DNA of 64,000 bases from Hormiphora californensis (lineage: Eukaryota > Animalia > Ctenophora): assembly GCA_020137815.1 (NCBI GenBank), contig CM035357.1:3286001-3350000 (forward strand), read 5' to 3'. The notes below the pieces were generated by a model. It did no database searches. It had not been told where the DNA came from and worked only from the letters and a program-made list of their open reading frames with translations. Within the stretch, counting starts at the first letter, position 1, and each line of letters opens with the position of its first letter. Positions 29,901 through 54,208 of this stretch are shown in pieces. The position numbers and the translations under genes were made by a program.

Positions 29901-32900
29901 ATGAGGATAAGACTACACTTTTCTTCACACCTGATCAACTCAAGGGATGTTCCCAAGACTTCCTATCTGGTAAAACAAGTGACTATTATTGATTCTTTGT
30001 TTACACGAGTTGGGTAATCATGATTCTCGAAAATATTGTTCATCAGGCTGTCTCGAGAACAGAATGGGTTTTATTTCTCGTTATTTCCCCCTGTTAACCC
30101 TTATTACCCTGTTAACCATGTTATCTCTGTTACCCCCGTTAACTCTATCCCCCCTCCTACTAGGGATTGAGAAGGATGAGGAAGGTCGCCATAAGATCAC
30201 ACTACAGTATCCCCATCTATATCCCATACTGAGGGAGTGTGTCATTGAGGATACTAGGAAACAGCTGCTTGTGGCACGTTACTCCATGTGCAGGGACCAA
30301 AACACACCCATCCTTGAGGTAGGTAGTGAGGTATAGATTGAGGTGTAGATTGAGGTATAGAGTGAGGTATAGAGTGAGGTAGGGTGTGAGGTGTAGTGGT
30401 ATTATATAGGGACCAAAACACACCCATCCTTGAGGTAGTTACTACGTAACTTTAGACTTGAGGTATTTGGTTAGGTATTGAGTGAGGTATTGGGTGAGGT
30501 ATTGGGAGGTTTGTTTTTTAATCGACCCATGTTTTAGAACAAGCAGCAAACGCTAAAAACTTTCATTTTAGGAACTGGTTAAATTGAGGGCAGAGAAAGC
30601 AAAGCTTCTTGGATTTGAGACTCATTCTGATTTCATATTGGATGCGAGGATGGCCAAAAGCAGGACTACCGTGGCAACTTTTATAGATGACATGGTAAGA
30701 AGATATAATGATGTTAACTTAAGTTATCCTAATTAGGATACATTGAGATTATATATTTTCATTGTAATGCCATAATATAGTTTTCAGTTCAACCACTAAA
30801 ACTAATACAACTCTGGTTTTAGGTCTCTAAGATGAAAGGACCCCTTGCGAAGGAATTCGATGGATTCCTAAAAATGAAGGAGAAAGAATGTGCTGAGAAT
30901 GGGGAGGCATTTTCTGGGACAGTGCAACCTTGGGACATCTACCATTATATGCAGGTTGGGATTAAATTACTCATACAGTAAAGTATGAGATTCTGAATTA
31001 GGTTTAGAGTTGTAGCCAGAGGAGAGAGAATGGGGCGAGAATTTGAGATTATTTGAGATTTTAGTAGGAGATGAGATGAGATTAGAAATGATACTGATGT
31101 GTGATAAATTCCATCTGTGAAGTTTTTACACGGTTTTATAACAGATTCCTCCCCTCAGATTACAGTAAAAGAGCAGTACTCGGTTGACCAGGAGCTTCTC
31201 AAACAATACTTCCCAATTGATACAGTCACAAAGGGCCTTCTGGAGATCTACCAGCGAATATTCAACCTCCGATTTGAAAAGATCTCCGAGCCAGCTGCGT
31301 GGCACGCTGATGCCTCCCTACACAGCGTGTTCGATGCTACTTCCGGCCAGTTCCTCGGTCAATTCTACATGGATTTACACCCTCGGGAAGGGAAATACGG
31401 TCACGCTGCAGTGTTTGGACTCCAGCCAAGTGTTGCTCTCCCAACCGGAGATCGTCAACCCGCTGTCTGTGCTCTGGTTTGCAATTTCACCGCTCCCACT
31501 GCTGATAAACCCGCCTTGTTGACCCATGGAGAGGTGGAAACATACTTCCACGAGTTTGGCCACGCAATGCACCAGATTTGCTCACAAGCCGAACACGCAC
31601 TCTTCGCAGGTGAGGGGCGCGCGTGTACGCGGTATCCCGCGGTGCATATCATGACGAGACTCTCACCAGCGCTGAAGTCAGACTCTCTAACCGTTGGAGA
31701 GAGAAAGAGAGATCTAGATAGATCCTTCCCTAACCACAGCGGAGAGGGAGAGCTGTATGGACACTCTGTCTCTGCTGTGCGCACACTTGTCTCTGCTTGT
31801 TTACCTCATGACGTGGGTTACAGAGAGGGAGAGAACCATTATAGCGGATCAACGCCTCGTGATGCCCTCTCACAGAGAGGAGAGCCGATTATTGCGCACA
31901 CTTGTCTCTAGGGAGAGAGAGAGACGGCTAGGGACCGATTAAGTGTGACGCCCAGCGTCACACTTATTTTGCATTCTCCGGAGACTATATAAGGGCGGGC
32001 TGTTAGCTGCCATTTGTCTTTTGTTAGAGACCCAACCCAGAGGAAACCCAGAGGAAACCCTTCTCAACCCGCCTACCTCAGAGCTATTGCCTAGCCATGC
32101 TCTCCGCTCCTCTTCCTGCCAAAAGCCCGTGTAGATTTACCTATATATACTTAACATAGAGTTAGCTAGATAGGATACCAGTGCTCTTATTACATTGTTA
32201 GTGCCATTATTAGAGTGAATATTAAGGGTATAGAACATATTGTAGTTGCTTATCTATTTATTACCCACAACCCTGTGTTTGATATTCTATCCTCGGGTAG
32301 AGATATACTGAGTACCATAGCGGAGCTATGGAGGGGGGTTATGCGTGACTCAGTAGAGATGGAGCCCCCAGCGAGAATCGAACTCGCGACCCCTGGTTTA
32401 CAAGACCAGTGCTCTAACCTCTGAGCTATGGAGACTGGAAATCGGATATACCCACTTGGGAATGGGGAGAGGAAAGAAGAGTAGAAGCTATACTACAAAA
32501 ACTCCAGTTCGAAGACAACCCTCTACTAACGCCGGAGCAGAAAGCTCAAGTTCGGGAATTGTGAAGGAATACCAAGAAATCTTCAGTCTTTCAGATAAGG
32601 AACTGGGTCTAACTACCCTGTATCACACTGAGATAAAACTTAAAGAAAATGCCACTGTTGTTAACAAAAATAGACCCATACCCATGCACAGCTTCGAAAC
32701 GGCTAAAGAGATGATTCTAGACATGATTGAAATGGGAGTGTTAGAACCGAGCACAGCTACTTATCGGTCCCCCTTAGTGATAGTCAAGAAGAAATGGAAA
32801 GAATAAGATGTGTATCGATTTCAGGCTACTCAATGACGCTACGGTGTCTAATTTGCACCCACTCCCAACGGTCCAAGAAACTAGGAATATTTGGTTCGGA

Positions 32901-35900
32901 TGCAAAATGTGGAGCGTCATGGATCTTAGCTCCGCATTCTGGCAAATACCACTACAGAAGACTCTAGGACGTCACGACTATATGGCTGAATTCGATGGGA
33001 TCCTGGAGGCACAAGGTGGTGCCCATGGGGCGAGAACAAGCCCAGCAGCCCTGCAGTCTTTAGCTGATAGGCTTTTCGGGGACCTGAGGCGAATGTTTGC
33101 GCGGTTTACTTGGATGATATAATATCAGGGCAGCCAATGCTGAGGTCATGATGGATAATCTGAACTAATATCGAGAGACTAAAATTGGTGGGCTCAAACT
33201 GAAACCCGGAAATGCGAGCTATTTCAACGGGAAGTCATGTTCTTGGGATGCAAACTAACAGAAGAAGGGCTGTACGCAAACCAAGAGAAAATAAAGGATC
33301 TTTTGGAGATGCCAGACCCGAAATCAAAGAAGGATGTCCAAAGAGTGTTGGGATTAGCTGGGTATTTTAGGGAGTTCGTACCTAAATTCGCAGAAAAAGC
33401 TAAAGCCCTAACCTCGCTACTCCAAGGATCGGAAAAGTTTGAATTTGGGGAGGAAGCTAAAAACAGCTTCGAGGCCGTGAAAACCGCCCTGACGAACCCG
33501 CCCTTGCTTGGTTTGGGCGGATCCTAACAAGACGCTCAATATTTTACGGACGCATCAGGATACTGTATGGGGTTCTGTTTGATGCAGGAATCAGACGATG
33601 GAAAAATGCATCCCATCCATTATGGATCTAAAGTATTCAACCCCTCACAATTACACTGGCCATCTTTCGTGAAAGAATTCTACGCTGCATACTGGGCGAT
33701 AACCCGATGAGATTCTATCTATTGGGAGAAGGTTTGTTCTGCAGACCGATTGCAAAGCCATGAGTTTCGGGACTTTCCTAAGAAATCAACGGCCAATGCT
33801 ATAATCCGATGGAGTATGGAATTTGTCGGAGTACGAGTTTATATCAAGTTCGTACCAGGGAAGAGAACGTGGTCTCTGATTTTCTGACAGACCAGCTTGC
33901 CTCAGTCTTCATCAGGCTATACGATTACATCAAGCAAGGAATCCAGGATGCAGTAGCGGGTAAAGAAAAGAAGATAAGTCTAAAGTTGTGAATCAAGTGA
34001 GTGAGGAAACAAAACCAACCCAAGTAATAGGAGACGAGGAATTCTTGAGAGAGTCTAAGGAAGACCCTACTTTTAAAAGTGTACGCAAGTGGATCAGAGA
34101 AGAGGAAAAAGCAGGAGATCCCAACATGCTACCCCCTCAGAACGACAATACTATAACAAGCTGAGTCGGCTGAAGATAGGGGATCAAGATATCATTGCAT
34201 CAGATAGGGTAACCCGGGACTCACAGAGTTCCGCTGGTTACTTGCGTACCAGAGTCACAAATAGTCAAAGTCATAGAGGCAAGCCACACAGTGGCTGGAG
34301 CACCCCAGTCGTCCGAGAAGACCGAAAGTAGAATAAGACAGAATTCTATTTTCCTAATATCAAGAAAAAGTACGATTGTTCTGCAAGACCTGCAGCGATT
34401 GCTTCAAGACTAACCAGTATCTACCGGAACAAACCCATACCGGAGTTGAAACCATACACATAAATACCCAGGCATGTGGTGTTAACATGGACGTGGTACA
34501 GATATCGAAAGGGGGAAGATTTCCCAAGGTGCTTACTATGGTTGACAAATTCACGAAATATGTAGTGTTCGTGCCCATCGCTAATGAGAAGGCTACCACC
34601 ATAGCGAAAGCCTTCTTGGATAACTACGTTTGCATCTGGGGACCGCCCCAGATCTTAGTAACTGATAATGCTGCGACTTTCAAAACGGCGGAGGTCATGA
34701 ATAACCTATATGTCTCTAGGATAGAGAAGAAGTACTGTGCACCGTACCATCCCCAAGGGAATGGAATAGCAGAGCGGTTCAATAAGGTGCTACTACATCT
34801 GTTACAGAAACTAGTGGGGGATAATCCCGGACAATGGAGGCAAGCACACCGCGACTACAATTAGCAGTAAACTCAGCGATAAACGGTCCACAGGGTATTC
34901 CTTTCCGGTTAATGACCGGAAGAGAGATGACTGATTGGATGATGTCATATTCCAGACCAGATCAACAAAGTTCTTTGAGAGTGAGCATCATCTGGCAAGT
35001 GACATGTACCAAGAACTTAGAAAGATATTCCGATTGGCGGGTAACAACCTAGAATTGACACACCGTCTTCAAAAAAGGATATACGACCGGAATAAACAAG
35101 CCGTGAGCCTAGCAGTGGGAGACAAAGTGATGATCTACAGGCCGAAAGACACATCTAATAATTACTACAAGTTAGTAACTAACTTTAAGGGTCCATACAT
35201 TATAATTGATGCTTGGGATCAGCACGATTTTCTGGTGCAAAGAATACGGATGGAAAGAAAAACGGGGGACTGTAAATACGTTGTTCATCGAAACCACTTA
35301 AGGAAGATCCCCGAGGAATGAGAGGACATCTAGGAGAACAAGAGCAGGAAACCGCAGAAGCAAGCATAACTGAGGAGGAAGAAACAGAACCTGAGGACGA
35401 CAGCGAGATAGAGGAAATGCTGCTGCGAGACGACGACGACGACGGTTGGATCGGAGGATATACGGAAATTACGGGGACAGGAGATCGAAGGGTAACAAGA
35501 GCTCAAGCGAAGGCAAATCAGGCTGTAACAGGAATGGGGCCTCAAAACATTACGAGAGACTCTGGAATATCAATGGGGGAAATAAGGACACCTCCGAATG
35601 ATAGGGAAAGAGACCACCCAAGAGACAATACAAGGGTCCCCCCACGAAACCATACAAAGTCCCCCCAAGAGAACACACCAGACTACCCAAGATACCACCC
35701 AAGATTCCACGGGAGAGAGCTGGGGAAAACACCCCAGTAGCGGATAACAATAGGACAGCCCGGGTGAAGGGTCAACGCAAATTTCAACCCCATGGCGAAC
35801 TCGAATACTGGAAGAGTTAACCCGGGCATTTGAGAAGAGTTGGGAGAAGAAGAAGAAGGAGGGGAAAATCTAAGAGAACAAACTGACCCACTCAGAGGAG

Positions 35901-38246: not shown

Positions 38247-38293
<47 letters not shown>

Positions 38294-38561
38294 TAGTAGA
38301 GATATAATAACTTACAGGGAGCAGAGAACCTCGGTCTGCAAGTTAGAATCATAACAAGTATACATATCTAGAAGGAAATATAAAAATAAAGGGAAAATCA
38401 AAAAAAAGGGAGGGGAGAGAAACATAGAAAAAGGAATTTAGCACAAAACAATGAGAAAGGAAGAGGCAAGGAATACAACGGTAGAAAATGAAATGTGAGC
38501 ACAAGCAGTAGAGATAAGAGATAAGAGGGACCGATGAATGCATGAGCAAAAAGCAGGAGAG

Positions 38562-38603
<42 letters not shown>

Positions 38604-41600
38604 ATGACTTACCGAATGATGTTCAAATACTCAAATCTCTCACCTCCCAATCTCTCACTTCGATAAAGTCCCTACTTGCTAATTAACACCCCTTCCCAAG
38701 AAACCACCTTACCAGACCTCATTGTTCTGAACCTCAAAACTGACTCGGATTATTTGCTTAGGTTTTAGAATCAGGAAGATATGGCACAGGCAGAATGAAA
38801 TTCACCAGGAAAAAATACCCGGAGATAACAGCTATGATTGAAGAGGCCCCACCACAACCGGAGGACATATTACAAGATGAACCGCCTCGAAGGGACCTGA
38901 ATGAGGTGGAAGCACTGAAAGAAGTACAGGAAGAACAACAGAAGAGGATACAGATAAAACATAACAGAAGGAGGAGAAAGGAAGATGACAGAATGATATG
39001 GAAATTACTGCGAGCCAACCCCAGTTTTACGATAAAATTAACAAGTAACTTGTCGGCAGCCAATAGATCTAAGGAATACCATGCAATCAAAGTAAAATTG
39101 ACTAAAAGATACAGAAAATTATTCAAAAAATGCCGCCAATTAAATAGTAAAGTAAATGGAAACACAGAAGAAATATTTGCTGCGATGATAGAGGGAGAAG
39201 AAATACCTGGAAGAATTGAGCTGTGTGAGAAATGAAACTATGTAAGAAGGGTAGATTGATATAAATAATGCCATTTCATAATTGTGCCTATGGCTGTTGT
39301 TTTATTAGATCCCTGAAACCCCATACAAACTCTTTCTAATAAACCACATACAAATTACTGAGTTACCCTATAGAACTTTCTGTAGCCGACAACGGCTACA
39401 GAAAGAGTTGCGGCAACAGGAGCAACAGCAGCAACAACCCCCACTAGGGGACATTCCGCCCCTAGGAGAGAACTATATAGAATGAGAGACAGAGTGAGAG
39501 AGATAAAGAACTATTAGAGAGAGGGAGAAAAATTATAAATAAGGGAGAGAGAAAGAACTATTAGAGAGAGGGAGAAAAATTATAAATAAGGGAGAGAGAA
39601 AGAACTATTAGAGAGAGAGACTATTAGAGAGAGAAAAAAAAAAAAAAAAAATGTATAGAGAGAAAGAGCTATATAGAGGGAGAGGGAGGCAGACAGTTAG
39701 CGTTCAGGCAGACAGTTACACCTCTTATACGAAGTTTTGTTGTTGTTGTATATATACATAATAAAATGGCAGGAGTTTTGCACGAATACAGGGTGCGCCG
39801 AGTGCCCAAGACGAAGATACAGTTGGGAAACAACGCCCCGATCACGATAGAGGAATTATCCGGAAAAGTGGACGAAGGGATCAACTCCTGGGAAGAAAGC
39901 GACTCCTGGAAAATATACCCGGACTTCACGGAAATAACTGACATTGACGGCGCCCGAAGCGCGTGGTACGAGTTCCTCTGGTTTTCCGGGTTTTTCACAG
40001 TGAGGCATTCCTTTTGCAGAATGATCAAAGGATCAGGAGATGTGATGATAAACCCGGAGTTGAAGACCTTTCCCCCTTTCACTCGCCCCCTTAGGGCTGA
40101 AGGATCAATCACAGGTTACAGATTCGATCTGGACACCCTGTTTACCCCGCCTGAGGGGGACGAAGAACCAGAGAAGTGCCACAATCTGCATGGACTCATC
40201 ATCCCATCAAGAAAATTGATGGGGATGTTCTTCGCCTGCGCCGCGGAATTTGTCCCTCTTAACCCAATGTTCATTGAAATGCAGCAGGACAATGAATATG
40301 AGCGAGGCTGCTAATACGGGGTGGAGGGCATGGAGGAGGGGGTGCAGGCGAGGGGGGTCCTGGGCAGTGGGCAATGGAGTGGAGTATACGGGTGAACAAC
40401 AATCTGTAATTACGACGAGCGGAGTACCAGGTAAACATCTAATAATAGTCGTCTGACATTTCGTGCTTCCTGCCCGCTATATTATGCAACGCTGATTGGC
40501 CACTTGTGTGGGTAAGCAATAACCCAGTGCTTTTTGTTGCTTGCTCATATATTGCGAGACCAACTTAGATATCAAAGTGTTGGGGAGATCACGTCCAGTA
40601 GATGTTTGAGTAGACATAGTGTCTGACGCTATAAGTGGACATGGGTCTGGTGAGAATAAAACAAGATCAACAAAGGAGAAAGGGTATAGTAGTACAGCCC
40701 AAACTAATCTGGTTTTGGAATGGACACAAGCCTGTAAAGGCACGCCGTGTTGTATTCACACTAAGGAGCGCGTGGATATAGGGTCGAGCCGGACAATTAT
40801 AACCCAGATATCAACAGGATGGCAACGATGGGTGTTTTATTGAATTACTAATTTGCGACGCGGTTACCCTTACATAAGTTGTCGCACGCGACATTTCAAA
40901 ACTATATGTGAGGGAGGTGATGTAATCACCGATATTACTATTTCCAATCACTGTCTTGGTCTTCAAATTCGACTACTCCTAACATCCAACATTCTACACA
41001 GGTCCCGACAGAACGACCAGACTAATTATCGATTCTAATAAACCTCTTATCATAGCAATGACATCCTACCTCGAACACAAAATGGGAACGGATTTGATAA
41101 AAGAGGAGAAGGTACAACAATATCGGATAAAGCAGGCGATGGGAGATCTGGAAGAGCTGCTGAGAGAAGGGAAATGGAGACACAGATTCTTTGGCTCCAC
41201 CCAGAACAGGACAGTGGTGAGAGGGAGCGACATAGATGTGCTAATATGGGCGGAGCAGAGCGCAACCGAGACGATGAGGAATCTGGACAGGAACAAAGGA
41301 AAAGCATTTAAATTCGTGAAAAAGGTGAACAAACTGGGAGTCTTGACACTCAGGCACGAGGCAGGAATCAAGATAGACTTTTGCTGTGCTACGGAGGACG
41401 ATAGGAAGGAAAGAGTTCTGTGGAACTCAAACCTTATTAAATGGTACACAGAGGAGAAATTGTTCCAGATAACAGTTAAATCAATAAAAACTCTGTTCGA
41501 AGGGACACCGGTGTTGCAGGCTTCCTTGGGAGGAGTATCCAACTACGCAATAACACTAGTCACGCGGGCTGTCTTAGAAGAAAATAGAATCGTTAAAGAG

Positions 41601-44600
41601 GCCCACCTAGAGGAAAGACGAAAAAGAAACAGTGAGCGACAGAATCTGGGGGAAACATCAGCCATAATGACGATGTTAAGATTTATGGGGGACAGCACGG
41701 AGGGAATGGATAATTGTACGATAGACTTGAGAAAAAACTTGGGAGAGAAAATAGAAAGAGGATCTCCCCAGATTAGAGATCCTTTTGAGGTAAAAGATTT
41801 ATACAGAACTCAAACGGATGGTGTAAGAGAGATCAGATGGAACATAGTCTCTTATTACGTACAACAACTACCAGTCAGGAGGTGGAGAGACGTCAAGAAG
41901 GATGTAGTAAACGCGTCAAAAGCTTGGTATGAGCTACCAAGAAAAACTAGAACAAGGGCATATTTTGATGTAGAAGAATTGAACGATAGAATATGAGCAA
42001 TTGAACAAGTGGTATTTCACATTAAATTACCCATGCTAATGTAAATAGGATTATATTGCTACGAAATTGAGATCCAACTGTTAGCGAAGGTGCGAAATTG
42101 TTCTTACACAATGGTATATTATTGAATTGCATTTACATTTATCGAAACGGGTTAACCACTGCACTCAACCCTATGTGTTTTTCTGTAACCTTATTACTCT
42201 TGTTATCGCTGCATCCTTGTCAACGATGGCCCTCTCGTATCATTGATTAAACATTATCTATTTCCAAAATCAGATGGATTTGGTGTCCTAAAATTCAACA
42301 CCGCCTAACATCCAACCTTCTAAATAGGTCCCAACAGGAAGGAAATGAACGGAAGGGAAGACGGAGTTGATCCGGAGTTTGTCAACGAAATATTACAGAT
42401 ATTACAGATATTAGCTTCGCTACCAATCCCGGATGTTTGTACTACTAGTAGTGCTAGTGAACGTGCTGTTGGCAAAGGCGAGGAAGGCAGACATCTAGAA
42501 GAGGAAAAAGTAGAGAAAGAACCAGAGAGATCCTGGGACGGAACAGTTCCTACTGATGAGGCCGAGGGTATTAACGAGAGGAAAGAAGAGCGTGATAAGG
42601 AGTGGAAGTGGAAGGAGGACCAAAGAAAAGAGAGAAAGCAAGATAGCGAGACAATGGAAGAACATAAAGCCCAATATGAAGAGACTATTGAGAAAGAGAG
42701 AGAGGAAAGAAACCGAAAAGTGAAAGAGAGAAAAAGAGAGAGAGATAGGATATACCAAGCCAATAAACGGGCAGAAAGAAGAGAGTATAGAAACCGATAC
42801 GGTATAGACATGATTAAGAGGAAGAAGGAGGGGCCGAAAACTAGGAATGCGGTGTACTCGAGAAGATACAGAGAAAAGAAAAAAGAGAGGCAAGAGATCA
42901 TGAAATATTTAGGGAAGGAGAGGGAGTGATGTTCTCACGTGAACATGTCGATGATAATTAATGTCCGAGATATCTTGAACCTCACACTTCCTGGTACTGG
43001 GTTCACTATCGCTATCCATAAAATGCAACGAGACTGTTGAGTGGTTAGGGCTGTAGAGGCCCGGTACTGCTGTTTCCTTCCGCACAAGACAGACTTTGAG
43101 GGACAACGCGGCCCTTATGGTAAACAGGTGAACTCCATCCTTACGTTCGCCATCTCTCTCTTCACCTTCTCGGAAACCTTCGACGTAGCGCCACCGAGAT
43201 TCTAAACACAAGAGTTGTTATTCGGACTTTGAAATTATGCGGAAGGAGGTCTTCCTGGACCAGGGCTTTTAAGAATTCAATGTGGCCCTGTAGTAATGAG
43301 TGGATGCTGATTTAGGGGTAATGAGGTATTGGTAAATACCCGAACTAAGCTATCTTGTTGAATTTAATGAGAGTATTTTGTATGTATATTGAATTTTCGT
43401 ACACTGTAAAGATACTATACGTTCCTCATACCAATGTGTTATTTGAAATAATTATCGAGAGTGATCATAACTCTTTATGCCTGAAGTAATCCATTACGAT
43501 CTAGATACTGCTGATTCCCAACCTATAACTCTACCCACACACTAGCTAGAGGGCATATAATGAATTGCACGAATGAAGTAGGGGAATGTGAGTTCCCTTG
43601 GGAAGTGATAAAGATAACAGGGATACTGTTGAGTGGTATATACCTGGCCTGCGTTTTATGTTATTGTCTACGAACCTGCACACACTAAGGACACGAGAGA
43701 TAAAGAGACTTTAGAAGATGTGGAAAAATACTGTTTAACGAGATTATGTGACCTAGATAGATGAAATTGTAAATAATATTGACAATAATTACAAATTAGT
43801 ACAACAATAAACGTCAAAGATTGTTATTGATTTCTAGATAATTAGAGAAGGAAACTAATATGTGTCTTTTCAATATAGCGAATGGAAGAAATAGAGAATA
43901 TGTATGGGCAGGCAACTCCGATAACCGATGTAACAAATCCATTCGTATGTGACCCTTACAATGTGGAAAGAATTGAACCTATGTCACCCAATTACGTGAT
44001 CGCGGGAACAGATAGACCAGTTTTACCCTGTATCCTTAGGAAAGATATGGAGGAGGAGACATCGAAAGCATTGAGCCGATTGACAGTGTCCTCCGTTCAC
44101 TCATCATGCAACTCCCACGATTCACTACAGGGGCCACAACCCTCTACGGAGTATATTGAAGCAGAGGAACCCATGGAGGAGGGGGTTGCGGGAGAGCAAA
44201 CTTTGCATAGCCCAGAGGTGGGAGAAGTGGCAACCTTATCCCTTTCAACTACTCCTTATATGGATATTAGCGCGGAGGTACTCCCTTGCACAGAGGAGGA
44301 TGGTGTAGAAAAGGGATACGAAATGGAAGATCTCCTTAAAGAGTTAACAGGGGAGATATTGGACTTGCAATGTCCACCTCTCCAGGGGACACCAGTAACC
44401 TTCAGTCCAACAGCCTCACCCAAACAACAAGAAGCAGGACCGGAAGTAAGTGAGGATTATCCGGACTGGTTGGTACAGCTCCTGGAAGCAAAGATTGAAC
44501 CAGAGGAAGGCTATTCGTCATCAAGAGATATGGAGTGGGATGGCACAGACGAACGGGGGAATGGTGATAATACATGTTGCCAGGGGACGTCGATGGAGAT

Positions 44601-47600
44601 GGACGAACCCAGAACAGAGAATTCGGTTCTGGTATTAGGGAAATGTCGGGAGGAAGCGAGGATGCTGGATTTAGACAAGTCGGCTGTGGGAAAAGTCTCA
44701 ACACGGGAGAGATGTTGGAACAAAACAGTATACGAGAGCAAAGTCTACAGCGAGCTCCAGGCCCACACCACGACAAATTCACAACCAACCTCACCGGAGT
44801 ACAAGAAGGGGGAAGATGGTCCAGAACGAGTACACAGGAGAAGCAACAGAGAGGGAGCAGAGATGGACAGACCACACTTGACATCGAAGGAATGGGTAGA
44901 TTGGATACTGTCACGAGAGGGGGAGGAAGAAGTCTACACATGGATAGACAACATTAGCGAAACAAGAATGGACAGATTCGCTAAGGAGATGGAGAGCATC
45001 ACCCTTGAGGAAGCAACAGAGGATGGAAGAAAAATGAAGAAAGAAAAACTAAACGTAGAGATCACAGGAATAAAGCAAGGTGCAAGGGTACCAGTGAAAG
45101 ATGTCGCGATGGAGAATAGCGACGATGAAACCCAACCGGGAATCAACACAGAGACGGAAATAATAGTGAACGTGGAAGGTAGAGCGGTTATATCGGTATC
45201 AGCCGAAATACTAAGAACATTGCAAGGATTTGAACAAAGCAATAAGCAGCAACGCCGAAAGAAACGCAATATTGCAGCTCAGAGGGAGAAAGGGCGATTA
45301 AGGACCATAAAATACAGAGTTCGGAGAAGGTGGAAAAAAGAAATTGGACTTTCAATGATGACTATGCTGCAATCCACACTAACGAACAATTGAGGAGAGA
45401 CAAAGAATTATAAATATACTATACAGTGAGGGTTTGTTGATATTATCAAATGGATTTTAATGAGTGAGTCGCCATGGTGACCATAGCGACCGTGTTATTG
45501 ACAGTGAAAGAACCACACGAGAGAACCGGTGAGGTATCAAGAGGCACATATATTGAAAGATTAAAATGTAAAGTAAAATATTGGAAGATTGAAATGAGTT
45601 GGGAGTTGTTTTACTGTTCAAAATATGAGAACATACACACACGCTGATCATACTAACACGAACCTATCCCTATAGGCATGACAGCTAGTATGATATTGAT
45701 CGTTGGGATGGCAACAACGATAATGGCAAAGGAGATGGTGAGTCCAAGGATATGCCAAGATAAAAGAGGAGGCGCCATCTACAGATTACCACCTCTGCTC
45801 AACTGCGATGAGGAGAAGTTTGACAGTTGGGAGATTAGACTATGGAAGAAAAATATAAAGGAGTATACTGGAAACATAAAGGGGGTGAAAATCATCCGCA
45901 GGACGTGCACCACCAAAGTGGGGTTCCTAGGCGACAAGGAGGTATTGAAGAAGAAGACATATGAAATACTCCCACAGGATACAGTGGACACCCTCTTTAG
46001 ACAAGGAAGCTGCGTTAACCCTAACGGATACGCTACATTGAGTTCGGGCGGAAAGGACTTTAAATGCCCAGGGGAATGGATGAAGACAAAGACAGCGGTA
46101 GTGATGGAGTGCTTACACTACGAAGGGTCTATAGTGAAACGTCATGGACAACCCGGGCGAACAGACCTTACAAGTTTCCATGGTTGCGCTTACGAAACGG
46201 GTAGGTGTAGGGCAAAAGATGGAATGTACCTAAGATGGACTCCAGAGGAGATTGAGAAGGAGGAGTACACCCTGCAGGGACGTTATTCGGCAGTAAAAAC
46301 CGGAGACCACATACTTATACCGAAATTAGCAATGGTACTAACCGTCTCAGAGGGTGAGGGCCCTTGGGAATCTGGTGTGTTCCGGATTGAGAGGATAAAA
46401 GAGGAAGGACCCGACAACGCAACGGTAAAAATGGCCGGGAATCCAGACGGAATAGAGGCATTGAGAGAAGAAATGAATGCAAGACTGGAATACCTGGCGG
46501 AAACAATGAAGTCACCGAGAGCAAAACTAGAATATTTGTGTGACATATGGAATCAGGTGAGGAAGAACGAGAGAGTTGTAGCGTCTCGAAGCCCTACGAA
46601 ATACGCCCAATTAAAGCTGGGGTATGATGAAATGATAGCGAAAACCACGGGGGAATACCTCATGGTTTACCCGTGCCAAAGAGTGAATGAATGGAAATGG
46701 GGGAACAAAACAAATCGATGTTGGGAAGAGGTACCTATACAGTATAAGCTATCAAAAGATACCAAATGGACAGAAGGATATCTGGATCCAAAAACAAACA
46801 TCATCACCAGAAGAGGAACAGAGTCACAGTGCCGAGGAAGAGGCATAGTGACTGAAATAGGAGATAAACTGGAAAGTCATACACAACATGGCGTACAAGA
46901 TATAAACACAACAAATGTGGTAACGCTGGACGACGCGATAAGTGGAATTCCAATGATCGATTTCCTAGACGCAGAATGGGCTTACGACGAGAGTGAGTTA
47001 ACTAATACAGAGTTGGATAGAATAACGGACAAAACAGATATCTCAAAACCAGGGGATGAGGAGCCTGAAATAAACAGGAATCCCCATGGAATGTGGAAAT
47101 TAGTGGGACTGAAAACACTATCCTGGGACGCGGTGCTAAACTGGGTGTGGCTATGGTTCACAAGAATAGTGTGCCTGATCTACACAACCCAGACAATCGG
47201 AAAATGGATGTGGAAGATAGGAGAAAACAAGTTGAGAGAGATTAAATGGAAAAAGCAACAACGAAAACGAAACGTTTGGTTCTCAAGACGACAACCACGG
47301 AGGAGAAGTGATATATCACGAGAACGAAGTGAAGACTCGGAGGATGAAGACGAGAGCTCAGAAGGAGAGGTCGTATGGGGACCTTAGTGAACTACGGATA
47401 GATAATGAATCCTAATAGTACATACAGAAACGAACTTTAATTTGTGAATATAGTGAAGCTAAATGAGTGAAATATTGAAGAATATGATTGTACAATGACA
47501 AATGCAAGTAAATGAATGTGAATAATCAGTTTGATCAGGGGACCCCGGCCGGACTTAACAACACCCTTGACCACACGTATTTCCATTCAAGGCCTATTAA

Positions 47601-50600
47601 GTCTCGAGTCAGTTCAAACCGCGAGAGTATACACTGTATGACTTTTCAGTATGTAGGGCAAACCCCCTAGATAAATAACTGACTCGAGGAGAAGCGTTGC
47701 GCAACGTAGGAACGCGGTAGCATACACTCAGAAAACCCTATCCCCTCCGAGTACTTCACTTACAAATACTAATCAACATCTCTTCATATATAGCAATGTA
47801 TTGGACAGTGATACTAATACTACTGGCATGGATAAACAAATCCAGGGCTGGTACGAACGACTATATGATGGATGAAATAATCATAGGAGAAGACACAGGA
47901 GTTTCCATGGAGGCAGTAGGATTCTTACTAGGACGAGATGGAAACCACTACCGGTCTATTTTCCTGAAATTACAAGACCCGACAGACAAGATGGACCTAT
48001 GCAATCAACTCTGTCCAGGGAGCGTGAACAAGGCGGTAACGCAATGGACAAGAGCCAGACAGATGACATGCAAGGTTGGACAGAAAAAGGGGAAGACATT
48101 CGCCCCAGAACTACGACGAATTCGACACGATGGAGGAATCCCGGCGAACGTATGTGTCAAGACATGTTTACTAGACCCATTCTGCTTCCAAGTTGGAGTA
48201 ACGGCTACTGAATGTGTACTGCGACCACGGGAGCTGACGGACGACGAGATGGAAGGGGCGACTACGGACTATGGAGAGTATGGGATGAAGTGTTTCGCCG
48301 AAGCCAATACGAAACAGGCGATGTGTGAAGCAGCAGCGAAAACAGCGGAGGAAACCCTTCTACTGGAACTAGATAGAGAGAACCGGAAATTTGTACAGAA
48401 AACATGGGATAACTTGAACGCACTCATACCGACAGAAAAGGGAATAAAGAAAAGGGGTGTGAAAGATTGGTTACTAGGCGGAGGAACTGGCCTAAGCCTA
48501 TTAACTGCTGGATATGACTTATGGGCCACAGTGAAACTGAAAAAACATGTGAATGAGATACAGCAGGAATTCGAAGCGTTCAAGAAAAACCAAACTAGAT
48601 TCGACAAGGAGCAGATCAAGTTCAATGGGAAAATTTTGGAAGTGAGTCAACATTTGGAACAGCGTATAGAAAGACAAGAATGCCGAAGCGACCAGGCGGT
48701 GTGGCATCTACTAAACCAACGGAGGCTTTCGGAATGGAAAGACTATATGCAACAACTGTATCGGGGAGTCCTAGCGGGGAGTCAGGTTGGGGAGATATCA
48801 CCCATTATATTTCCAAAGAAATACATGGAGAAACTGGTGAGAGATGACACCAGTCTGGCCAAAACAGCGTACAAAGAAAATATAGCACTAGCATACCGAC
48901 TTGGACTGCTGGCGGTAGTTAGCCACGGCCAGGGAGAAGGACAATTCGCTATTCACGTGGTGCTAAGTTTCCCAGACCTGGGAACACAAGGGGTCAAAGA
49001 AGTATACAGGGTACTGCAAACGGGGGTAGCTTTTAACGGCAGTCAATGTGGAAGGTTCGAACTACCATCTGTCGTGTATAAGGAAGAAAACAAATTTTAT
49101 GAAATGGAACAAGCAATTTGCGAAACAAAGGCCAACCTGCACCTATGCTGGGGAGGATCAGGAGCAGGTAGGAGAGAAGTGTCTTGCCTGTCAAACAAAG
49201 AGGAATGCAAAATTGGATTAGAGAAATGCAGTACTCAAGTTAGAGAGAACAGGGCAGGATTACAGGTACGAACCACAGAACAAGTTAGAGCAGCAATGTT
49301 AAAAACACCAGATGTGTGGAAAAGAGTGGACATGGGAAAGACAAGGACAAAATTCTTCAATAGATCACAATACGCAGGAGTGATGGTGGGAGAATACGAG
49401 AGAAGCATGGCACCGGAGAAACATGAAATCAGGGTCACAACATTACCAAACCCGGACCAGTGGAGGGAAATAATAAGTCAACGATGGGAGACTCACCAGA
49501 GAGAGAATATTAGTGATCTAGCAACGATAGTACACGAGCAGAAACAGATAGTAAAAGGGATAGTGGAATCCGGAAAGATAAGCGGTGGAATGAAACTAAC
49601 GGATTATTTGGCGATTGCAGCAATGGTGATGGCCACGTTAGGGACAGTAGGGCTAGTGACCTACCTGGTGGCCAAGCACAAGATGGCTAGACTCAGTGAC
49701 GACGAACAACGAGTGAGATATAAAGTTAAAAGAAAGAGAAAATGGGACGAGAATGAAATTGAAGAAGAGGTGAAAAGGGAATCAAAGAGGAGGAGCATAA
49801 CGTTAGACGATGAATCAGAAGGAGACGAGAACAAAGAGACGACACAATTTCTGGAGGACACAGAGGACAGCGAACCAGAGGCAGCATACCGAACAGCCCA
49901 ATTAGATTTGGATCAGACCCTGGAACAAATTCCACTACAAATACAACCAATCGCACAAAGTACACCTAGACGAGTGACACAAATTCGAGGACACCAATAC
50001 CAACCGACAACGATGACACAAGCACTAGCGATAGTACATCGAAAGAATACGACGAGGTGAAGTGATAAGACGAAAAGACGAAAAAGAGATAGTGAGACTA
50101 TGAACTACTATTTTAAACGTTTTAGAAGACAATATGTGAAATATAGAAGTTAAAATGAATATGAAAAGCTATAGACTGTGCTAAAAATATTAGAAATAAT
50201 AAAAAGAGATAAGTAAAAAGTGAAATTAGTAATATTGGAAGGAGCGGTGGAGCGGGCTTGGTTTGGCTTTCGTGAGGAGGGGGGTGTACGCGGATAAACC
50301 GCGGCAGAAACGGAGTAGTTAGACTAGACTACTCGACCTTTTTTCAAAGACTCAAACGCAGACGGCCATCTCCAGAATTACGGGGTGGGAGTGAACCAGA
50401 CTACTCGACCTTCGACCTTTTTTCAAAGACTCAAACGCGGACGGCTATCTCCAGAATTACGGGGTGGGAGTGTACGCGGTATCCCGCGGTGCATATCATG
50501 ACGAGACTCTCACCAGCGCTGAAGTCAGACTCTCTAACCGTTGGAGAGAGAAAGAGAGATCTAGATAGATCCTTCCCTAACCACAGCGGAGAGGGAGAGC

Positions 50601-52247
50601 TGTATGGACACTCTGTCTCTGCTGTGCGCACACTTGTCTCTGCTTGTTTACCTCATGACGTGGGTTAGCAGAGAGGGAGAGAACCATTATAGCGGATCAA
50701 CGCCTCGTGATGCCCATCATCACAGAGAGGGAGAGCCGATTATTGCGCACACTTGTCTCTAGGGGAAGAGATAGACGGCTAGGGACCGATTAAGTGTGAC
50801 GCCCAGCGTCACACTTATTTTGCATTCTCCGGAGACTATATAAGGGCGGGCTGTTAGCTGCCATTTGTCTTTTGTTAGAGACCCAACCCAGAGGAAACCC
50901 AGAGGAAACCCTTCTCAACCCGCCTACCTCAGAGCTATTGCCTAGCCATGCTCTCCGCTCCTCTTCCTGCCAAAAGCCCGTGTAGATTTACCTATATATA
51001 CTTATACATAGAAGTTAGCTAGATAGGATACCAGTGCTCTTATTACATTTAGTAGTGCCATTATTAGAGTGAGAATATATATAAGGGTATAGAACATATT
51101 GTAGTTGCTTATCTATTTATTACCCACAACCCTGTGTTTGATATTCTATCCTCGGGTAGAGATATACTGAGTACCATAGCGGAGCTATGGAGGGGGGTTA
51201 TGCGTGACTCAGTAGACGCGGACGTGCGCGCGTGAAAAGCACCCAATGTTAGCATTCGAGGCACACCCATTCTCTCCCAGGGACGAGTGTTGAGCGGGAT
51301 TTCGTTGAAGCCCCATCACAAATGCTGGAAAATTGGTGCTGGGAACCGGAGAGTCTGAAGTTGATGTCCGGGCACTACAAGGATGGCAGTGCCATTCCAG
51401 ATGAGCTGTTGTCCAAATTGGTGGCGAGCAAAGCCGCTAATGTTGCTACTAGCACATGCAGGTGAAGGTGTTTTTTGGATGATGTCCAAGGGTGCACAAT
51501 AACAACTTTCTCATGCTTCCCCATTGCAATATTTCCTACCCACCCATCTCTACTCAGTGTTTCTCTTCTTTGTCCTCTCACCCCCTTCAGGCAGCTACTA
51601 TTTCTTACCCCTTATTTTCAGACAGTTAGTGTTCGGGATGTTTGACCAAGATATCCACACCCGAGAGAGCGCTGATACGGCAGCTTGCTTTAGTGCCGCT
51701 CACGAGAAGGTTATGGGAACCCGGCACCAGCTGGAACCAACTTTGCGGCACAATTCGGGCACATGGCAGGTACAATTGTGATTCTTCTTTGTCTCAAGAT
51801 CTGATTTCTAGACAATGTCTAGTAGACATTCACAATTATTTTAATATCTCAGCCCACATAAACAAAGACTATCAGGCGGACCCTTAACCGTTCAGTCCTT
51901 CCTAAATCAATATTTAATAAAACACCTTATTACCCCATCTCTATCGACTATCTTCCATCCCCAGACCCCCTATATTACTACCCATATACTTCTTTCAATA
52001 CCCATCTCCATCAGGTGGTTACGATGCCCAGTACTACGGCTACATGTGGAGTGAAGTCTACTCAGACGACATGTTCCAAACCGTATTCAAGGACGCTGGT
52101 GTCCTCTCTCAAGAGGCAGGCCTGAAATACAGGACATCAATTCTTCAGCCTGGTGGTTCAATTGATGCGTTTGATATGCTGAGGAATATGCTGGGACGGG
52201 AGCCCAACAGTGAGGCATTCTTCAAAGCCAAAGGGTTTGCTGTGTAG
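20928..52247 (+). CDS. Thimet oligopeptidase / neurolysin (peptidase M3A); exons 20928-21116, 21263-21374, 21495-21615, 29535-29638, 29877-29969, 30164-30318, 30572-30694, 30823-30954, 31159-31609, 51281-51461, 51622-51769, 52015-52247
   Basis: [27 protein letters not shown], zinc motif [49 protein letters not shown] junctions. One 1-nt frameshift near 51720 (probable assembly error). THOP1 versus NLN orthology cannot be resolved. Confidence 0.92.
23464..26535 (-). CDS. LDL-receptor class A repeat-containing GPCR (GRL101/LGR-related 7TM, no obvious LRRs), intronless, antisense in peptidase intron 3
   Basis: Signal peptide; multiple LDLa motifs ([43 protein letters not shown]); 7TM with TDFCCWMPF and [12 protein letters not shown]. 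Confidence 0.9.
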   Translation of the reverse strand: MWRVYLFVLIAGHHCIVNCHANNCNITEIGPILTDMCSRENATGYTQFRCYNSNFTFDAYARFTMGHRTRYTLVTGLCPDDSAVYQACVVKYLFDDLWWGFNKYYKAQLFDSRPVCGRLCWNDVYRGYLYTDDQQCPGDKEIQEFTYTLPRSPQDTFPIRPSLVCDGKCDYWAPSWNCVDELDCNGLSYGVVIPGFGVYPTSVYLFGDTSHIPEFRNLTFEGTCESNEITVQLYPLSNRSRCFYLLKHAAVGVSYSHPYCINGHDQTNCSYSGFVAGQCKVNGFPTTISVHMLCVKDMPIVCDNKLDGECVTTDRHCRLHKHRLCDGHSDCSSDADEKLDVCSRLTNRKCKRIMTQVKTMLPIPYNWVQDGVVDCVGGEDEDFTSWERCGTGSTNRVQKDGKCKDVFLCRPEEKFTFLELEDVCSITSSACGGKVCGISNQAVKRSSVTETFDGDKRIIRSGWCHKGLETFRQLIGDRCTEKDFTHPFHEFFGKTQATQLILSTVKQDCRYFYGNQYVYQSCSGQCRNEKCPLQKPILHSSCGNIENVRYSIAQPGVTVVKKDRHGYHNNVFACNTNLCIPFSKVCDLVDDCGDGSDEENCENSVKCQGSSKYIVISQMCDGAIDCPDLSDECNSVCHRKSIENIGIMVCAMVMGIVGTVLSGAQIIRSLFFDEPSKKDSLFVNKVLSNLIALGDLLTSLYLLILVTFNWANQNSFCEEQLAWVSSFSCQSIGIISTTGTTITSLSMAVVSLFKLQGATRGLRYKRSKDISQKFKKKVFAMVVAIIFIAVSFAITPIISAFEDGFVNGLTYEGANQLFLGVMTKEKLLTIIQGYHGTRMITRSETGLSWARIRSIVSSMFTTDNGGIQHRELSFYGNDPVCLFKFFVLPDDPQVTFVWLYISLHFVCFLTVALCHTVIGVLVARSKPPEGSNLASKLNQKIMLVCATDFCCWMPFLICCALHTTEVFDMSPWYQVFSLAILPINAVINPLLYNIECFIAALDFCKKRLRIRFQVEPAIPANGN
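27940..28722. repeat. tRNA-derived repeat in inverted and tandem arrangement (tRNA-like units at ~28000-28074 minus, 28077-28152 plus, 28286-28362 plus)
   Basis: A box TAGCTTAGTGG, B box GGTTCAATTCC, acceptor-like stem GGGTTTG/CAAACCC, T-run downstream, non-canonical anticodon arm. 27940-28212 is a near-perfect palindrome. Confidence 0.75.
31624..32357 (+). repeat. 5' LTR (TGTAC...GTAGA)
   Basis: Near-identical to 50471-51216. TATA-like ctatataaggg at ~31985; palindrome taagtgtgacg-ccca-gcgtcacactta at 31940-31966. Confidence 0.95.
32360..32435 (-). tRNA. Full-length tRNA-Thr(TGT) sequence with encoded CCA, occupying and extending the LTR primer-binding site
   Basis: Reverse complement GTCTCCA TA GCTC AGAGGTTA GAGC A CTGGT CT-TGT-AA ACCAG GGGTC GCGAG TTCGATT CTCGC TGGGGGC T CCA forms a complete cloverleaf, 2 nt from the LTR end. 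Confidence 0.92.
32456..35321 (+). pseudogene. Gypsy pol (RT, RNase H, integrase with GPY/F), multiply frameshifted in this assembly
   Basis: [36 protein letters not shown] at 33107-33118, [15 protein letters not shown], RNase H FTDASG and [51 protein letters not shown]. Confidence 0.92.
35318..37307 (+). CDS. Low-complexity charged/Pro-rich extension downstream of integrase (four ORF fragments, probably one frameshifted reading frame)
   Basis: Abutting ORFs 35318, 35840, 36418 and 36765 with similar composition, ending PPPRRSKRL. Confidence 0.45.
38795..39235 (+). CDS. Element accessory ORF A, 146 aa, bZIP-like (NLSAANRSK plus three heptad leucines)
   Basis: Frame is open from the acceptor at 38760-38761; basic helix followed by L-x6-L-x6-L. 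Confidence 0.45.
   Translation: MKFTRKKYPEITAMIEEAPPQPEDILQDEPPRRDLNEVEALKEVQEEQQKRIQIKHNRRRRKEDDRMIWKLLRANPSFTIKLTSNLSAANRSKEYHAIKVKLTKRYRKLFKKCRQLNSKVNGNTEEIFAAMIEGEEIPGRIELCEK
39766..40314 (+). CDS. Element accessory ORF B, 182 aa, unknown globular protein
   Basis: Clean ATG-initiated ORF of normal complexity between AT-rich spacers; no motif recognised. Confidence 0.6.
   Translation: MAGVLHEYRVRRVPKTKIQLGNNAPITIEELSGKVDEGINSWEESDSWKIYPDFTEITDIDGARSAWYEFLWFSGFFTVRHSFCRMIKGSGDVMINPELKTFPPFTRPLRAEGSITGYRFDLDTLFTPPEGDEEPEKCHNLHGLIIPSRKLMGMFFACAAEFVPLNPMFIEMQQDNEYERGC
41058..41996 (+). CDS. Element-encoded terminal nucleotidyltransferase (Cid1/Trf4/GLD-2-type non-canonical poly(A)/(U) polymerase), 312 aa
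   Basis: Pol-beta motif FFGS-x9-SDID, third Asp in [13 protein letters not shown] helix, [10 protein letters not shown] (GGxSSY) and QIRDPFE (PAP-associated IEDPF). Confidence 0.85.
   Translation: MTSYLEHKMGTDLIKEEKVQQYRIKQAMGDLEELLREGKWRHRFFGSTQNRTVVRGSDIDVLIWAEQSATETMRNLDRNKGKAFKFVKKVNKLGVLTLRHEAGIKIDFCCATEDDRKERVLWNSNLIKWYTEEKLFQITVKSIKTLFEGTPVLQASLGGVSNYAITLVTRAVLEENRIVKEAHLEERRKRNSERQNLGETSAIMTMLRFMGDSTEGMDNCTIDLRKNLGEKIERGSPQIRDPFEVKDLYRTQTDGVREIRWNIVSYYVQQLPVRRWRDVKKDVVNASKAWYELPRKTRTRAYFDVEELNDRI
42345..42929 (+). CDS. Element accessory ORF, 194 aa, highly charged with a bZIP-basic-like C-terminus
   Basis: [16 protein letters not shown] fits the N-x7-R basic-region pattern; no zipper follows. 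Confidence 0.5.
   Translation: MNGREDGVDPEFVNEILQILQILASLPIPDVCTTSSASERAVGKGEEGRHLEEEKVEKEPERSWDGTVPTDEAEGINERKEERDKEWKWKEDQRKERKQDSETMEEHKAQYEETIEKEREERNRKVKERKRERDRIYQANKRAERREYRNRYGIDMIKRKKEGPKTRNAVYSRRYREKKKERQEIMKYLGKERE
43882..45393 (+). CDS. Element accessory ORF, 503 aa, acidic body with basic C-terminus (putative nuclear regulator)
   Basis: Long intact ORF with an E/D/P/S-rich N-terminal part and C-terminal [27 protein letters not shown]. Confidence 0.6.
   Translation: MEEIENMYGQATPITDVTNPFVCDPYNVERIEPMSPNYVIAGTDRPVLPCILRKDMEEETSKALSRLTVSSVHSSCNSHDSLQGPQPSTEYIEAEEPMEEGVAGEQTLHSPEVGEVATLSLSTTPYMDISAEVLPCTEEDGVEKGYEMEDLLKELTGEILDLQCPPLQGTPVTFSPTASPKQQEAGPEVSEDYPDWLVQLLEAKIEPEEGYSSSRDMEWDGTDERGNGDNTCCQGTSMEMDEPRTENSVLVLGKCREEARMLDLDKSAVGKVSTRERCWNKTVYESKVYSELQAHTTTNSQPTSPEYKKGEDGPERVHRRSNREGAEMDRPHLTSKEWVDWILSREGEEEVYTWIDNISETRMDRFAKEMESITLEEATEDGRKMKKEKLNVEITGIKQGARVPVKDVAMENSDDETQPGINTETEIIVNVEGRAVISVSAEILRTLQGFEQSNKQQRRKKRNIAAQREKGRLRTIKYRVRRRWKKEIGLSMMTMLQSTLTNN
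45678..47387 (+). CDS. Envelope 1: class III viral fusion glycoprotein-like (chuvirus G / herpes gB / rhabdovirus G type), 569 aa
   Basis: Signal peptide; [12 protein letters not shown] and [10 protein letters not shown] putative fusion loops; [12 protein letters not shown]; central helix [29 protein letters not shown]; [25 protein letters not shown]; Trp-rich C-terminal membrane segment and basic tail. Confidence 0.75.
   Translation: MTASMILIVGMATTIMAKEMVSPRICQDKRGGAIYRLPPLLNCDEEKFDSWEIRLWKKNIKEYTGNIKGVKIIRRTCTTKVGFLGDKEVLKKKTYEILPQDTVDTLFRQGSCVNPNGYATLSSGGKDFKCPGEWMKTKTAVVMECLHYEGSIVKRHGQPGRTDLTSFHGCAYETGRCRAKDGMYLRWTPEEIEKEEYTLQGRYSAVKTGDHILIPKLAMVLTVSEGEGPWESGVFRIERIKEEGPDNATVKMAGNPDGIEALREEMNARLEYLAETMKSPRAKLEYLCDIWNQVRKNERVVASRSPTKYAQLKLGYDEMIAKTTGEYLMVYPCQRVNEWKWGNKTNRCWEEVPIQYKLSKDTKWTEGYLDPKTNIITRRGTESQCRGRGIVTEIGDKLESHTQHGVQDINTTNVVTLDDAISGIPMIDFLDAEWAYDESELTNTELDRITDKTDISKPGDEEPEINRNPHGMWKLVGLKTLSWDAVLNWVWLWFTRIVCLIYTTQTIGKWMWKIGENKLREIKWKKQQRKRNVWFSRRQPRRRSDISRERSEDSEDEDESSEGEVVWGP
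47796..50060 (+). CDS. Envelope 2: class I F-type fusion glycoprotein (paramyxo/baculovirus F / errantivirus Env-like), 754 aa
   Basis: Signal peptide; basic cleavage site GIKKR followed by a Gly-rich hydrophobic peptide [19 protein letters not shown] and a heptad helix; Cys-rich middle; membrane-proximal heptad; [25 protein letters not shown]; long cytoplasmic tail. Confidence 0.8.
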   Translation: MYWTVILILLAWINKSRAGTNDYMMDEIIIGEDTGVSMEAVGFLLGRDGNHYRSIFLKLQDPTDKMDLCNQLCPGSVNKAVTQWTRARQMTCKVGQKKGKTFAPELRRIRHDGGIPANVCVKTCLLDPFCFQVGVTATECVLRPRELTDDEMEGATTDYGEYGMKCFAEANTKQAMCEAAAKTAEETLLLELDRENRKFVQKTWDNLNALIPTEKGIKKRGVKDWLLGGGTGLSLLTAGYDLWATVKLKKHVNEIQQEFEAFKKNQTRFDKEQIKFNGKILEVSQHLEQRIERQECRSDQAVWHLLNQRRLSEWKDYMQQLYRGVLAGSQVGEISPIIFPKKYMEKLVRDDTSLAKTAYKENIALAYRLGLLAVVSHGQGEGQFAIHVVLSFPDLGTQGVKEVYRVLQTGVAFNGSQCGRFELPSVVYKEENKFYEMEQAICETKANLHLCWGGSGAGRREVSCLSNKEECKIGLEKCSTQVRENRAGLQVRTTEQVRAAMLKTPDVWKRVDMGKTRTKFFNRSQYAGVMVGEYERSMAPEKHEIRVTTLPNPDQWREIISQRWETHQRENISDLATIVHEQKQIVKGIVESGKISGGMKLTDYLAIAAMVMATLGTVGLVTYLVAKHKMARLSDDEQRVRYKVKRKRKWDENEIEEEVKRESKRRSITLDDESEGDENKETTQFLEDTEDSEPEAAYRTAQLDLDQTLEQIPLQIQPIAQSTPRRVTQIRGHQYQPTTMTQALAIVHRKNTTR
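50471..51216 (+). repeat. 3' LTR
   Basis: Follows the PPT and precedes the CGCG TSD; differs from the 5' LTR mostly by small indels. Confidence 0.95.
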
Positions 52248-53689: not shown

Positions 53690-53763
53690 TTGGCTGATAA
53701 CCAGTCACGTGACCTAAATAACGAGTTCTGATTGGTTGTTTACTTGTGTCGGTTCGGTTCCTG
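53654..53763. mobile_element. 110-bp hAT-like MITE
   Basis: TIR caggaaccga / tcggttcctg; 8-bp TSD ctatgcct / ccatgcct; it supplies the stop codon of ORF 52994-53689. Confidence 0.8.
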
Positions 53764-54208
53764 CCATGCCTGATAGTACCCAGAGGAGGGAGATGGCTGA
53801 AAGAGGGAGACTGAGAGTGGTTTTCCATCTGAAATCTTACTCTTGAATGGGTCTGAATGTTTACAATCCCACATTGCTTTTACGCTGCTTTATGCTGTAC
53901 TTCGTGTCATGTTGATATTTAGAAAATCAGGGTGTTGATTGATTGTGATGTTGATATTTTGTTGAGTAATATTTGATGTTTATATTAGGAACTGTCAGTT
54001 GTGTACATTTGGGCAATATGTGGGTCATGCAAACAGCTGGCCAGTGAATGGAGGTAGAGACGAAGGGTTTCTCTCGCCTTTTTAGTCTGAATTTTGGTTG
54101 AAATCTACAGTCCCTCCAAATACCCCGATAACAAAACTCCTTCCTTTCAGCGTGTTATTTCCAATTCTGATTATTGCTCTCACACCCCCATTTCCCTTGT
54201 TCTAGGAC

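Follow-up and report, generated by a model that had tools for sequence, protein, structure and literature searches.

Introduction

Envelope-bearing Ty3/Gypsy elements are already known from ctenophores. The accessible text of Chary and Hayashi (PMC13524379) lists nine of them, six with an F-type and three with a gB-type envelope, each element holding one type. Two F-type elements from outside Pleurobrachia and one gB-type element, all with called LTRs, span about 12-13 kb. Much longer Gypsy elements occur in planarians, where Burro (GYPSM1) is translated as one polyprotein of 4,873 amino acids with env located between gag and pol (PMC6431247). In bdelloid rotifers, LTR elements carry a single extra ORF (ORF3), which encodes a DEDDy exonuclease or a GDSL esterase (PMC5408684). 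Outside of retrotransposons, the tailing of small RNAs is described for the vaccinia poly(A) polymerase, which acts on host miRNAs (PMC4498801), and for TUT4/TENT2, which act on 3'-tRNA fragments (10.1101/2025.05.12.650695). Inserts of 7-54 nt of tRNA sequence have been reported at the deletion junctions of defective HIV-1 proviruses (PMC12657518).

Here we describe a 19,593-bp LTR element, known from one locus, that occupies positions 31624-51216 of the plus strand in a 64,000-nucleotide stretch of Hormiphora californensis DNA (the window). No element with both envelope classes or with a tailing enzyme was found in the literature searched, outside of which lay Repbase and most subscription papers; the accessible text of PMC6338049 does not mention a nucleotidyltransferase.

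Results

Element boundaries and insertion site

The positions of the annotated features are given in Table 1. The LTR pair, the CGCG duplication at both ends, the polypurine tract and the Gypsy order of pol (RT, RNase H, integrase) reported in the earlier note were all recovered. The two LTRs are identical in 731 of 748 aligned columns, with one substitution and twelve gap runs, ten of which are gaps in the 5' copy. Their termini read TG...GA instead of TG...CA, and a purine tract (50461-50470) abuts the 3' LTR. A short target duplication with LTRs, a tRNA primer site, a purine tract and the order of pol place the element with Ty3/Gypsy (Metaviridae). The host gene encodes a peptidase M3 whose intron without the element would measure 74 nt, and the flanking exons match consecutive positions of the Pfam profile (189-263 and 267-326). 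Purines account for 0.60 of the bases in pol and 0.62 of those in the cassette downstream of it, against 0.50 in both 10-kb flanks.

The single substitution between the LTRs supports a young insertion. To this extent the recent activity suggested in the earlier note holds, whereas the copy itself, with gag and protease gone, is unable to replicate alone.

A first purine tract, with 9 nt of the LTR start after it, was observed 186 nt upstream of the true 3' LTR. Together with the 59-nt duplication that follows, this doubled tract suggests template switching. The region before the 3' LTR was found to fold no better than its shuffles (z 0.09).

Table 1. Features annotated in and around the element (window positions)
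Feature	Position	Strand	Remarks
Peptidase M3 host gene around the element	31369..51462	+	donor 31610, acceptor 51280
Left target-site duplication	31620..31623		CGCG
5' LTR	31624..32357	+	734 nt, ends TG...GA
Complete tRNA-Thr(UGU) copy with CCA, at primer-binding site	32360..32435	-	66.8 bits; 2 nt from LTR
Deletion junction	32430..32435	+	6 nt common to tRNA 5' end and pol; leader, gag, protease absent
pol without protease	32430..37307	+	RT, RNase H, integrase with a long disordered tail; many frame breaks in the assembly
ORF1	38795..39235	+	146 aa, charged, no family
ORF2	39766..40314	+	182 aa, no family, GC3 0.62, TATA-like box upstream
Six acceptor-like sites, CTAAY ... YAG	40979..47793	+	ending 41001, 41055, 42327, 43878, 45675, 47793; just before ORF3 to ORF7
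ORF3, TENT / non-canonical poly(A) polymerase-like nucleotidyltransferase (predicted)	41058..41996	+	312 aa
ORF4	42345..42929	+	194 aa, charged helix, basic C-terminus, no family
ORF5	43882..45393	+	503 aa, acidic, basic C-terminus, no family
ORF6, gB-type (class III) envelope (predicted)	45678..47387	+	569 aa, PF24664
ORF7, F-type (class I) envelope (predicted)	47796..50060	+	754 aa, PAN/apple domain residues 75-175
Earlier purine tract with 9 nt of LTR start, then 59-nt duplication ending in purine tract	50274..50470	+
3' LTR	50471..51216	+	746 nt
Right target-site duplication	51217..51220		CGCG

The pol region and the state of the assembly

When the Pleurobrachia bachei protein P0025, the nearest relative of the element's pol, was compared with solved structures, the nearest was Ty3 Gag-Pol (9e-72) and the best retroviral RT scored 4e-29. 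The RT is not of the retroviral kind that marks the Retroviridae, and the likeness to complex retroviruses lies in the layout only.

The pol frame switches 29 times relative to P0025. A single contig (X1, from a read run of sample S1) covers 32440-38200 with 29 differing letters and 94 gaps, and all 12 gaps listed, out of 101, are common to X1 and to the independent X5 from sample S2. Because these gaps are common to both and the LTR comparison is likewise gap-heavy, the broken pol points mostly to an unpolished assembly rather than to decay. Contig X1 also omits 55 nt at 35422-35478, within the integrase tail, which means that S1 includes a second form or that the window deviates at this place.

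The region 41000-50400 is present in four runs of S1, a possible source, with 0.99 of the sampled words, in X5 with 0.84 and in four runs of organism B with 0.15-0.19; ten of the twelve read runs listed hold it at least partly. Read and contig support thus covers 32440-38200 and 41000-50400, and no single contig was found to span the whole element.

A whole tRNA copy at the 5' junction

The primer-binding site described in the earlier note does contain a primer site, although it is actually the complement of a whole 76-nt tRNA-Thr(UGU) molecule including the CCA. The homology of pol to P0025 starts at 32430, at residue 104 of that protein, and the first two pol codons that match it are at the same time the final 6 nt of the tRNA copy. 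The gag and protease that precede RT in Ty3/Gypsy elements are absent from this copy, and a motif scan of the plus strand of the element found neither a protease nor a CCHC knuckle motif. In P0026, another pol relative, the stretch that matches the element is preceded by a protease. Since both genes are absent here and the protease is present in P0026, we file the element as a deleted derivative and not as an autonomous member of its family. A 30-codon leader fused to RT was considered as the normal form of the family and rejected, as this ORF is off-frame.

The read contigs behave differently at this position. X1 starts about 10 letters before 32440, i.e., at the tRNA-pol junction, as is expected if two upstream forms meet there. 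X5 extends 663 letters beyond 32440 without a break, which we infer to be farther than a contig could reach unbroken through the tRNA and the repeated LTR. Both contigs point to the existence of an undeleted form of the element.

The whole tRNA at the pol junction is likely to be a read-through copy of the primer. In the mechanism that we propose, and hold to be very probable, plus-strand synthesis ran through the entire tRNA-Thr primer and jumped into pol at the short shared stretch. Such an event would make the copy non-autonomous and the parent family likely larger than 20 kb, a full member having a leader, gag and protease in addition.

The downstream cassette

Seven ORFs follow pol, with lengths between 146 and 754 amino acids. 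In 200 block shuffles no more than one ORF of at least 140 amino acids was obtained each time, the longest being 186 amino acids. The seven same-strand ORFs of the earlier note are all open and lie on one strand. Its AT-rich spacers proved to be only mildly so, with a GC content of 0.36-0.45 against 0.43 for the cassette. It had also named nested insertions with their own termini as evidence that would speak against a single element, and we found no LTR piece or terminal repeat within the cassette. Two internal repeats were found and no others: the 59-nt duplication that precedes the 3' LTR, and a 53-nt block that occurs upstream of both ORF3 and ORF4.

Four of the ORFs (ORF1, ORF2, ORF4 and ORF5) gave no meaningful family match in Pfam and further searches; three of these, ORF1, ORF4 and ORF5, had been put forward as regulators. 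ORF2 is distinct from the rest of the cassette in codon use, its fold model has a pLDDT of 31.7 and its Atlas matches are all below 0.8. The basic tails of ORF4 and ORF5, which we take to resemble a basic-region motif, have no match in Pfam.

Among named proteins, gene models of P. bachei come closest to pol, ORF3 and ORF7, which would suit a pleurobrachiid-like ctenophore host; these models carry no genomic positions, and their identity to the element differs from gene to gene. Four viral and two metagenome scans yielded no related locus that holds the cassette; the second metagenome scan gave eleven distant Gypsy loci (23-34%), none of them matching the cassette.

ORF3, a predicted RNA-tailing enzyme

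The matches of ORF3 to Pfam nucleotidyltransferases are weak (E 0.001-0.03, below the cut-offs), and a sequence search of the PDB gave no meaningful match. Its Atlas score to MTPAP-like clusters is 0.97. Twelve relatives were found among the 1.84 billion representatives searched; they keep the catalytic and central motifs where covered, down to about 22% identity, and three of the seven that were scanned pass the MTPAP-like Pfam cut-off. The alignment contains FGS-x-DxD, a third Asp and, in the central domain, GGxSxY and DP(F/Y)E, which we take to be motifs of TENT / non-canonical poly(A) polymerases. The proposal of an RNA-tailing enzyme in the earlier note thus gains support at the level of the predicted fold. 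The closest relative is P0001 of P. bachei (98%). Two further P. bachei relatives were observed, P0029 (77%) and P0028 (40%), the latter running on into about 330 unrelated residues past the ORF3-like part.

ORF3 is quite probably an active tailing enzyme. Its main role is a more tentative matter: it might possibly tail host small silencing RNAs and so lead to their decay, and a role in stabilising the mRNAs of the element itself seems rather unlikely. The vaccinia and TUT4/TENT2 enzymes offer a likeness in that tailing serves as a route to remove small silencing RNAs; however, the former belongs to a DNA virus and the latter to the host, and neither is encoded by a retrotransposon (PMC4498801; 10.1101/2025.05.12.650695, as far as their accessible texts go).

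ORF6 and ORF7, two predicted envelopes

ORF6 matches PF24664 above the cut-off (E 6e-12) over residues 284-386 only, and it has hydrophobic stretches at both the N-terminus and the C-terminus. All six cysteines of the domain I-II segment are common to ORF6 and Pbac_errantivirus_3 (supplement of PMC13524379) in a comparison made by eye. The profile match and the cysteine pattern are those of a gB-type (class III) fusogen, as far as can be predicted, and through this match the element has an env-like fusogen gene after pol, which is one part of the operational sense of an errantivirus in PMC13524379.

ORF7 has the layout of a class I envelope, with signal, basic cleavage site, fusion peptide, two long helices and a membrane anchor, although no hydrophobicity peak above 1.5 was found at the signal or the fusion peptide. 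Seven relatives were identified at 32-93%, the closest being P0002 of P. bachei (93%). The cleavage site of ORF7 and P0002 matches the furin consensus less well than that of the five more distant homologues covering the site. The fold model has a mean pLDDT of 39.4 and is confident only at residues ~70-180, which match PAN/apple domains (Z 8.4, rmsd 2.4, 76 aligned). With this low-confidence model F proteins rank first among the viral fold matches (E 5e-7), and in the PDB Foldseek gave nothing at E <=0.001, the best and weak match being at 7e-3. No Pfam envelope matches ORF7, and sequence searches of the PDB were without meaningful match for ORF6 and ORF7 alike.

The two envelopes of the earlier note are thus borne out as predictions, a gB-type ORF6 and an F-type ORF7 between one LTR pair. 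We propose, and see even chances for it, that the PAN domain lets the F-type protein bind a receptor or a glycan, and that having two envelopes would provide two entry routes or cell targets.

Expression signals

The acceptor-like pattern CTAAY...YAG has nine matches on the plus strand of the cassette (eight distinct AGs) and seven on the minus strand; six of the plus-strand AGs lie directly upstream of ORF3 to ORF7. An acceptor at most 16 nt before the start was found for four of the seven ORFs and for three of 271 other ATGs (Fisher p 5e-6). With a window of 20 nt, set after ORF4 had been missed at 16, the counts are 5/7 and 4/271 (Fisher p 2e-7). ORF1 and ORF2 fail this test.

A 53-nt block occurs twice, at 40959-41011 and 42285-42337, with 81% likeness; it precedes ORF3 and ORF4 and contains the branch-point and acceptor. 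Upstream of ORF2, the stretch 39493-39765 contains tandem repeats with a 47-nt unit, as well as GA runs and a TATA-like box, and it is a possible internal promoter for this acceptor-less ORF.

At least 56% of the Iso-Seq reads from Hormiphora carry the spliced leader (PMC8527503), so trans-splicing could resolve a single transcript. No spliced-leader gene was found in the window, and no strong donor in the remaining LTR and leader. Spliced-leader trans-splicing is frequent among ctenophores, and it might well, if tentatively, be the process that cuts one LTR transcript at the acceptors into single-gene mRNAs. The acceptors agree equally with cis-splicing, for which the donor would have lain in the deleted leader, and it may perhaps be this route that would yield the single-gene mRNAs.

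Other features of the window

Three further regions were observed outside the element. Between 27940 and 28722, three degenerate tRNA-like copies (Rfam 32-34 bits) lie within nested repeats, inverted as well as direct, that measure 55-131 nt; this looks like a tRNA-derived repeat that is rearranged or mis-assembled. An 835-aa low-complexity ORF with no Pfam match is located in 52564-56716, with partial upstream duplicates that are 73-91% alike. On the minus strand, 23464-26541 holds a single-exon frame of 1025 amino acids with cysteine-rich repeats and several hydrophobic stretches, which presumably resembles an LDLa-bearing GPCR.

Discussion

Interpretation and alternative explanations

We consider it probable that the insertion at this locus is young and has lost gag and protease, that it belongs to a likely ctenophore Ty3/Gypsy family, and that the seven genes after pol, those for the predicted gB-type, F-type and RNA-tailing proteins among them, likely move together and are expressed as parts of a single complex, retrovirus-like genome. 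A bolder reading is rather doubtful when taken as a whole: an active ctenophore lineage of >20-kb Gypsy viruses, with a class I fusogen bearing a PAN receptor-binding domain, an unrelated class III fusogen and a counter-silencing RNA-tailing enzyme, its operon resolved by trans-splicing, which would be a complex retrovirus-like genome arisen independently on an early animal branch. The earlier note had likewise proposed an independently evolved complex virus. The multi-gene, two-envelope layout stands, whereas the copy is non-autonomous and the env-bearing Gypsy group is old and known. As such elements are known in ctenophores too (PMC13524379, in its accessible text), only the cargo and the layout are new.

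The two envelopes could also have been joined recently, by a template switch between a gB-type and an F-type family, and not be kept by selection. We regard this as unlikely. It would suit the finding that ctenophores hold each type singly, six F-type and three gB-type among nine elements (PMC13524379), as well as the purine tract that occurs twice and the false start of an LTR, which look like template switching, and the identity to P. bachei that varies between genes. On the other hand, both envelope ORFs are open throughout and agree in acceptor style and codon use, and the stretch with both was found in two samples. Quite improbable is a cassette of captured host or viral genes, or of nested insertions, carried by a non-autonomous derivative with no role in replication. 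Its one strand, the lack of internal termini and introns, the pol-like purine bias, the diverged conserved families of ORF3 and ORF7 and the contigs indicating an undeleted relative all argue against such capture; the missing gag and protease, the distinct codon use of ORF2 and the four ORFs without a family would agree with it.

The uneven quality of the sequence, where the 5' 6.6 kb are poorly polished and 41000-50400 is clean, would be seen if the assembly had joined two elements with a common LTR. Such a chimaera is very improbable, given that the target duplication matches, the host exons on either side are consecutive and one X1 contig covers 32440-38200. As to the tRNA, a nematode element is said to encode its own, and we found no paper on one. 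A working gene for the element's own primer tRNA, with the gag-less form as the normal one, would be in keeping with the 66.8 bits and the CCA end of the copy. This explanation is hardly credible here: the last 6 nt of the tRNA double as pol codons matching P0025, X1 forks at the junction while X5 continues past it, the relative P0026 has a protease, and the same lesion is described in HIV (PMC12657518). We therefore retain the deleted, complex derivative as our reading.

If this layout is general, LTR retrotransposons can attain the organisation of complex retroviruses with unreported cargo, namely an RNA-tailing enzyme and fusogens of two classes within a single genome. Published env surveys would then have missed a class through their length filters. 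The family would also allow one to test whether retroelements counter small-RNA silencing through tailing, and it would be an example of an operon that a retroelement runs by trans-splicing.

Comparison with known elements

The closest described group is that of the ‘Ancient errantiviruses’ (PMC13524379), found in ctenophores and other non-insect animals, which share with this element a Ty3/Gypsy pol followed by env, with F-type and gB-type envelopes in ctenophores. The nine ctenophore elements listed have one env type each, whereas the present element has two envelopes and five more ORFs. An intact errantivirus has GAG-POL-ENV with env no more than about 1 kb from pol, and it is further marked by its place in the POL tree and by an RNase H with a 'mini' bridge domain; here gag is deleted, and 8.4 kb with five ORFs separate pol from ORF6, the first env. 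The filters of that survey (POL-ENV gap <=1 kb, LTR distance <=14 kb) exclude such a layout. Its accessible text does not mention two env genes, accessory genes or a nucleotidyltransferase, and one of its ctenophore elements may share pol with this one.

Burro resembles the element in exceeding 20 kb, in its env homology and in extra domains that are thought to be host-directed (PMC6431247). The cargo of the present element differs from the Burro polyprotein in being separate ORFs after pol, of which ORF3 to ORF7 each have an acceptor-like site of their own. The bdelloid elements share an RNA 3'-end enzyme after pol, but theirs trims and does not tail, and the accessible text mentions no double envelope (PMC5408684).

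Finally, in defective HIV-1 proviruses, where second-strand transfer is delayed, tRNA primer sequence past the primer-binding site likewise marks an internal deletion junction (PMC12657518). In HIV-1 the insert is partial, while in this Gypsy element the copy extends to the tRNA 5' end; on this likeness, a lesion known from HIV reservoirs would also form germline Gypsy derivatives.
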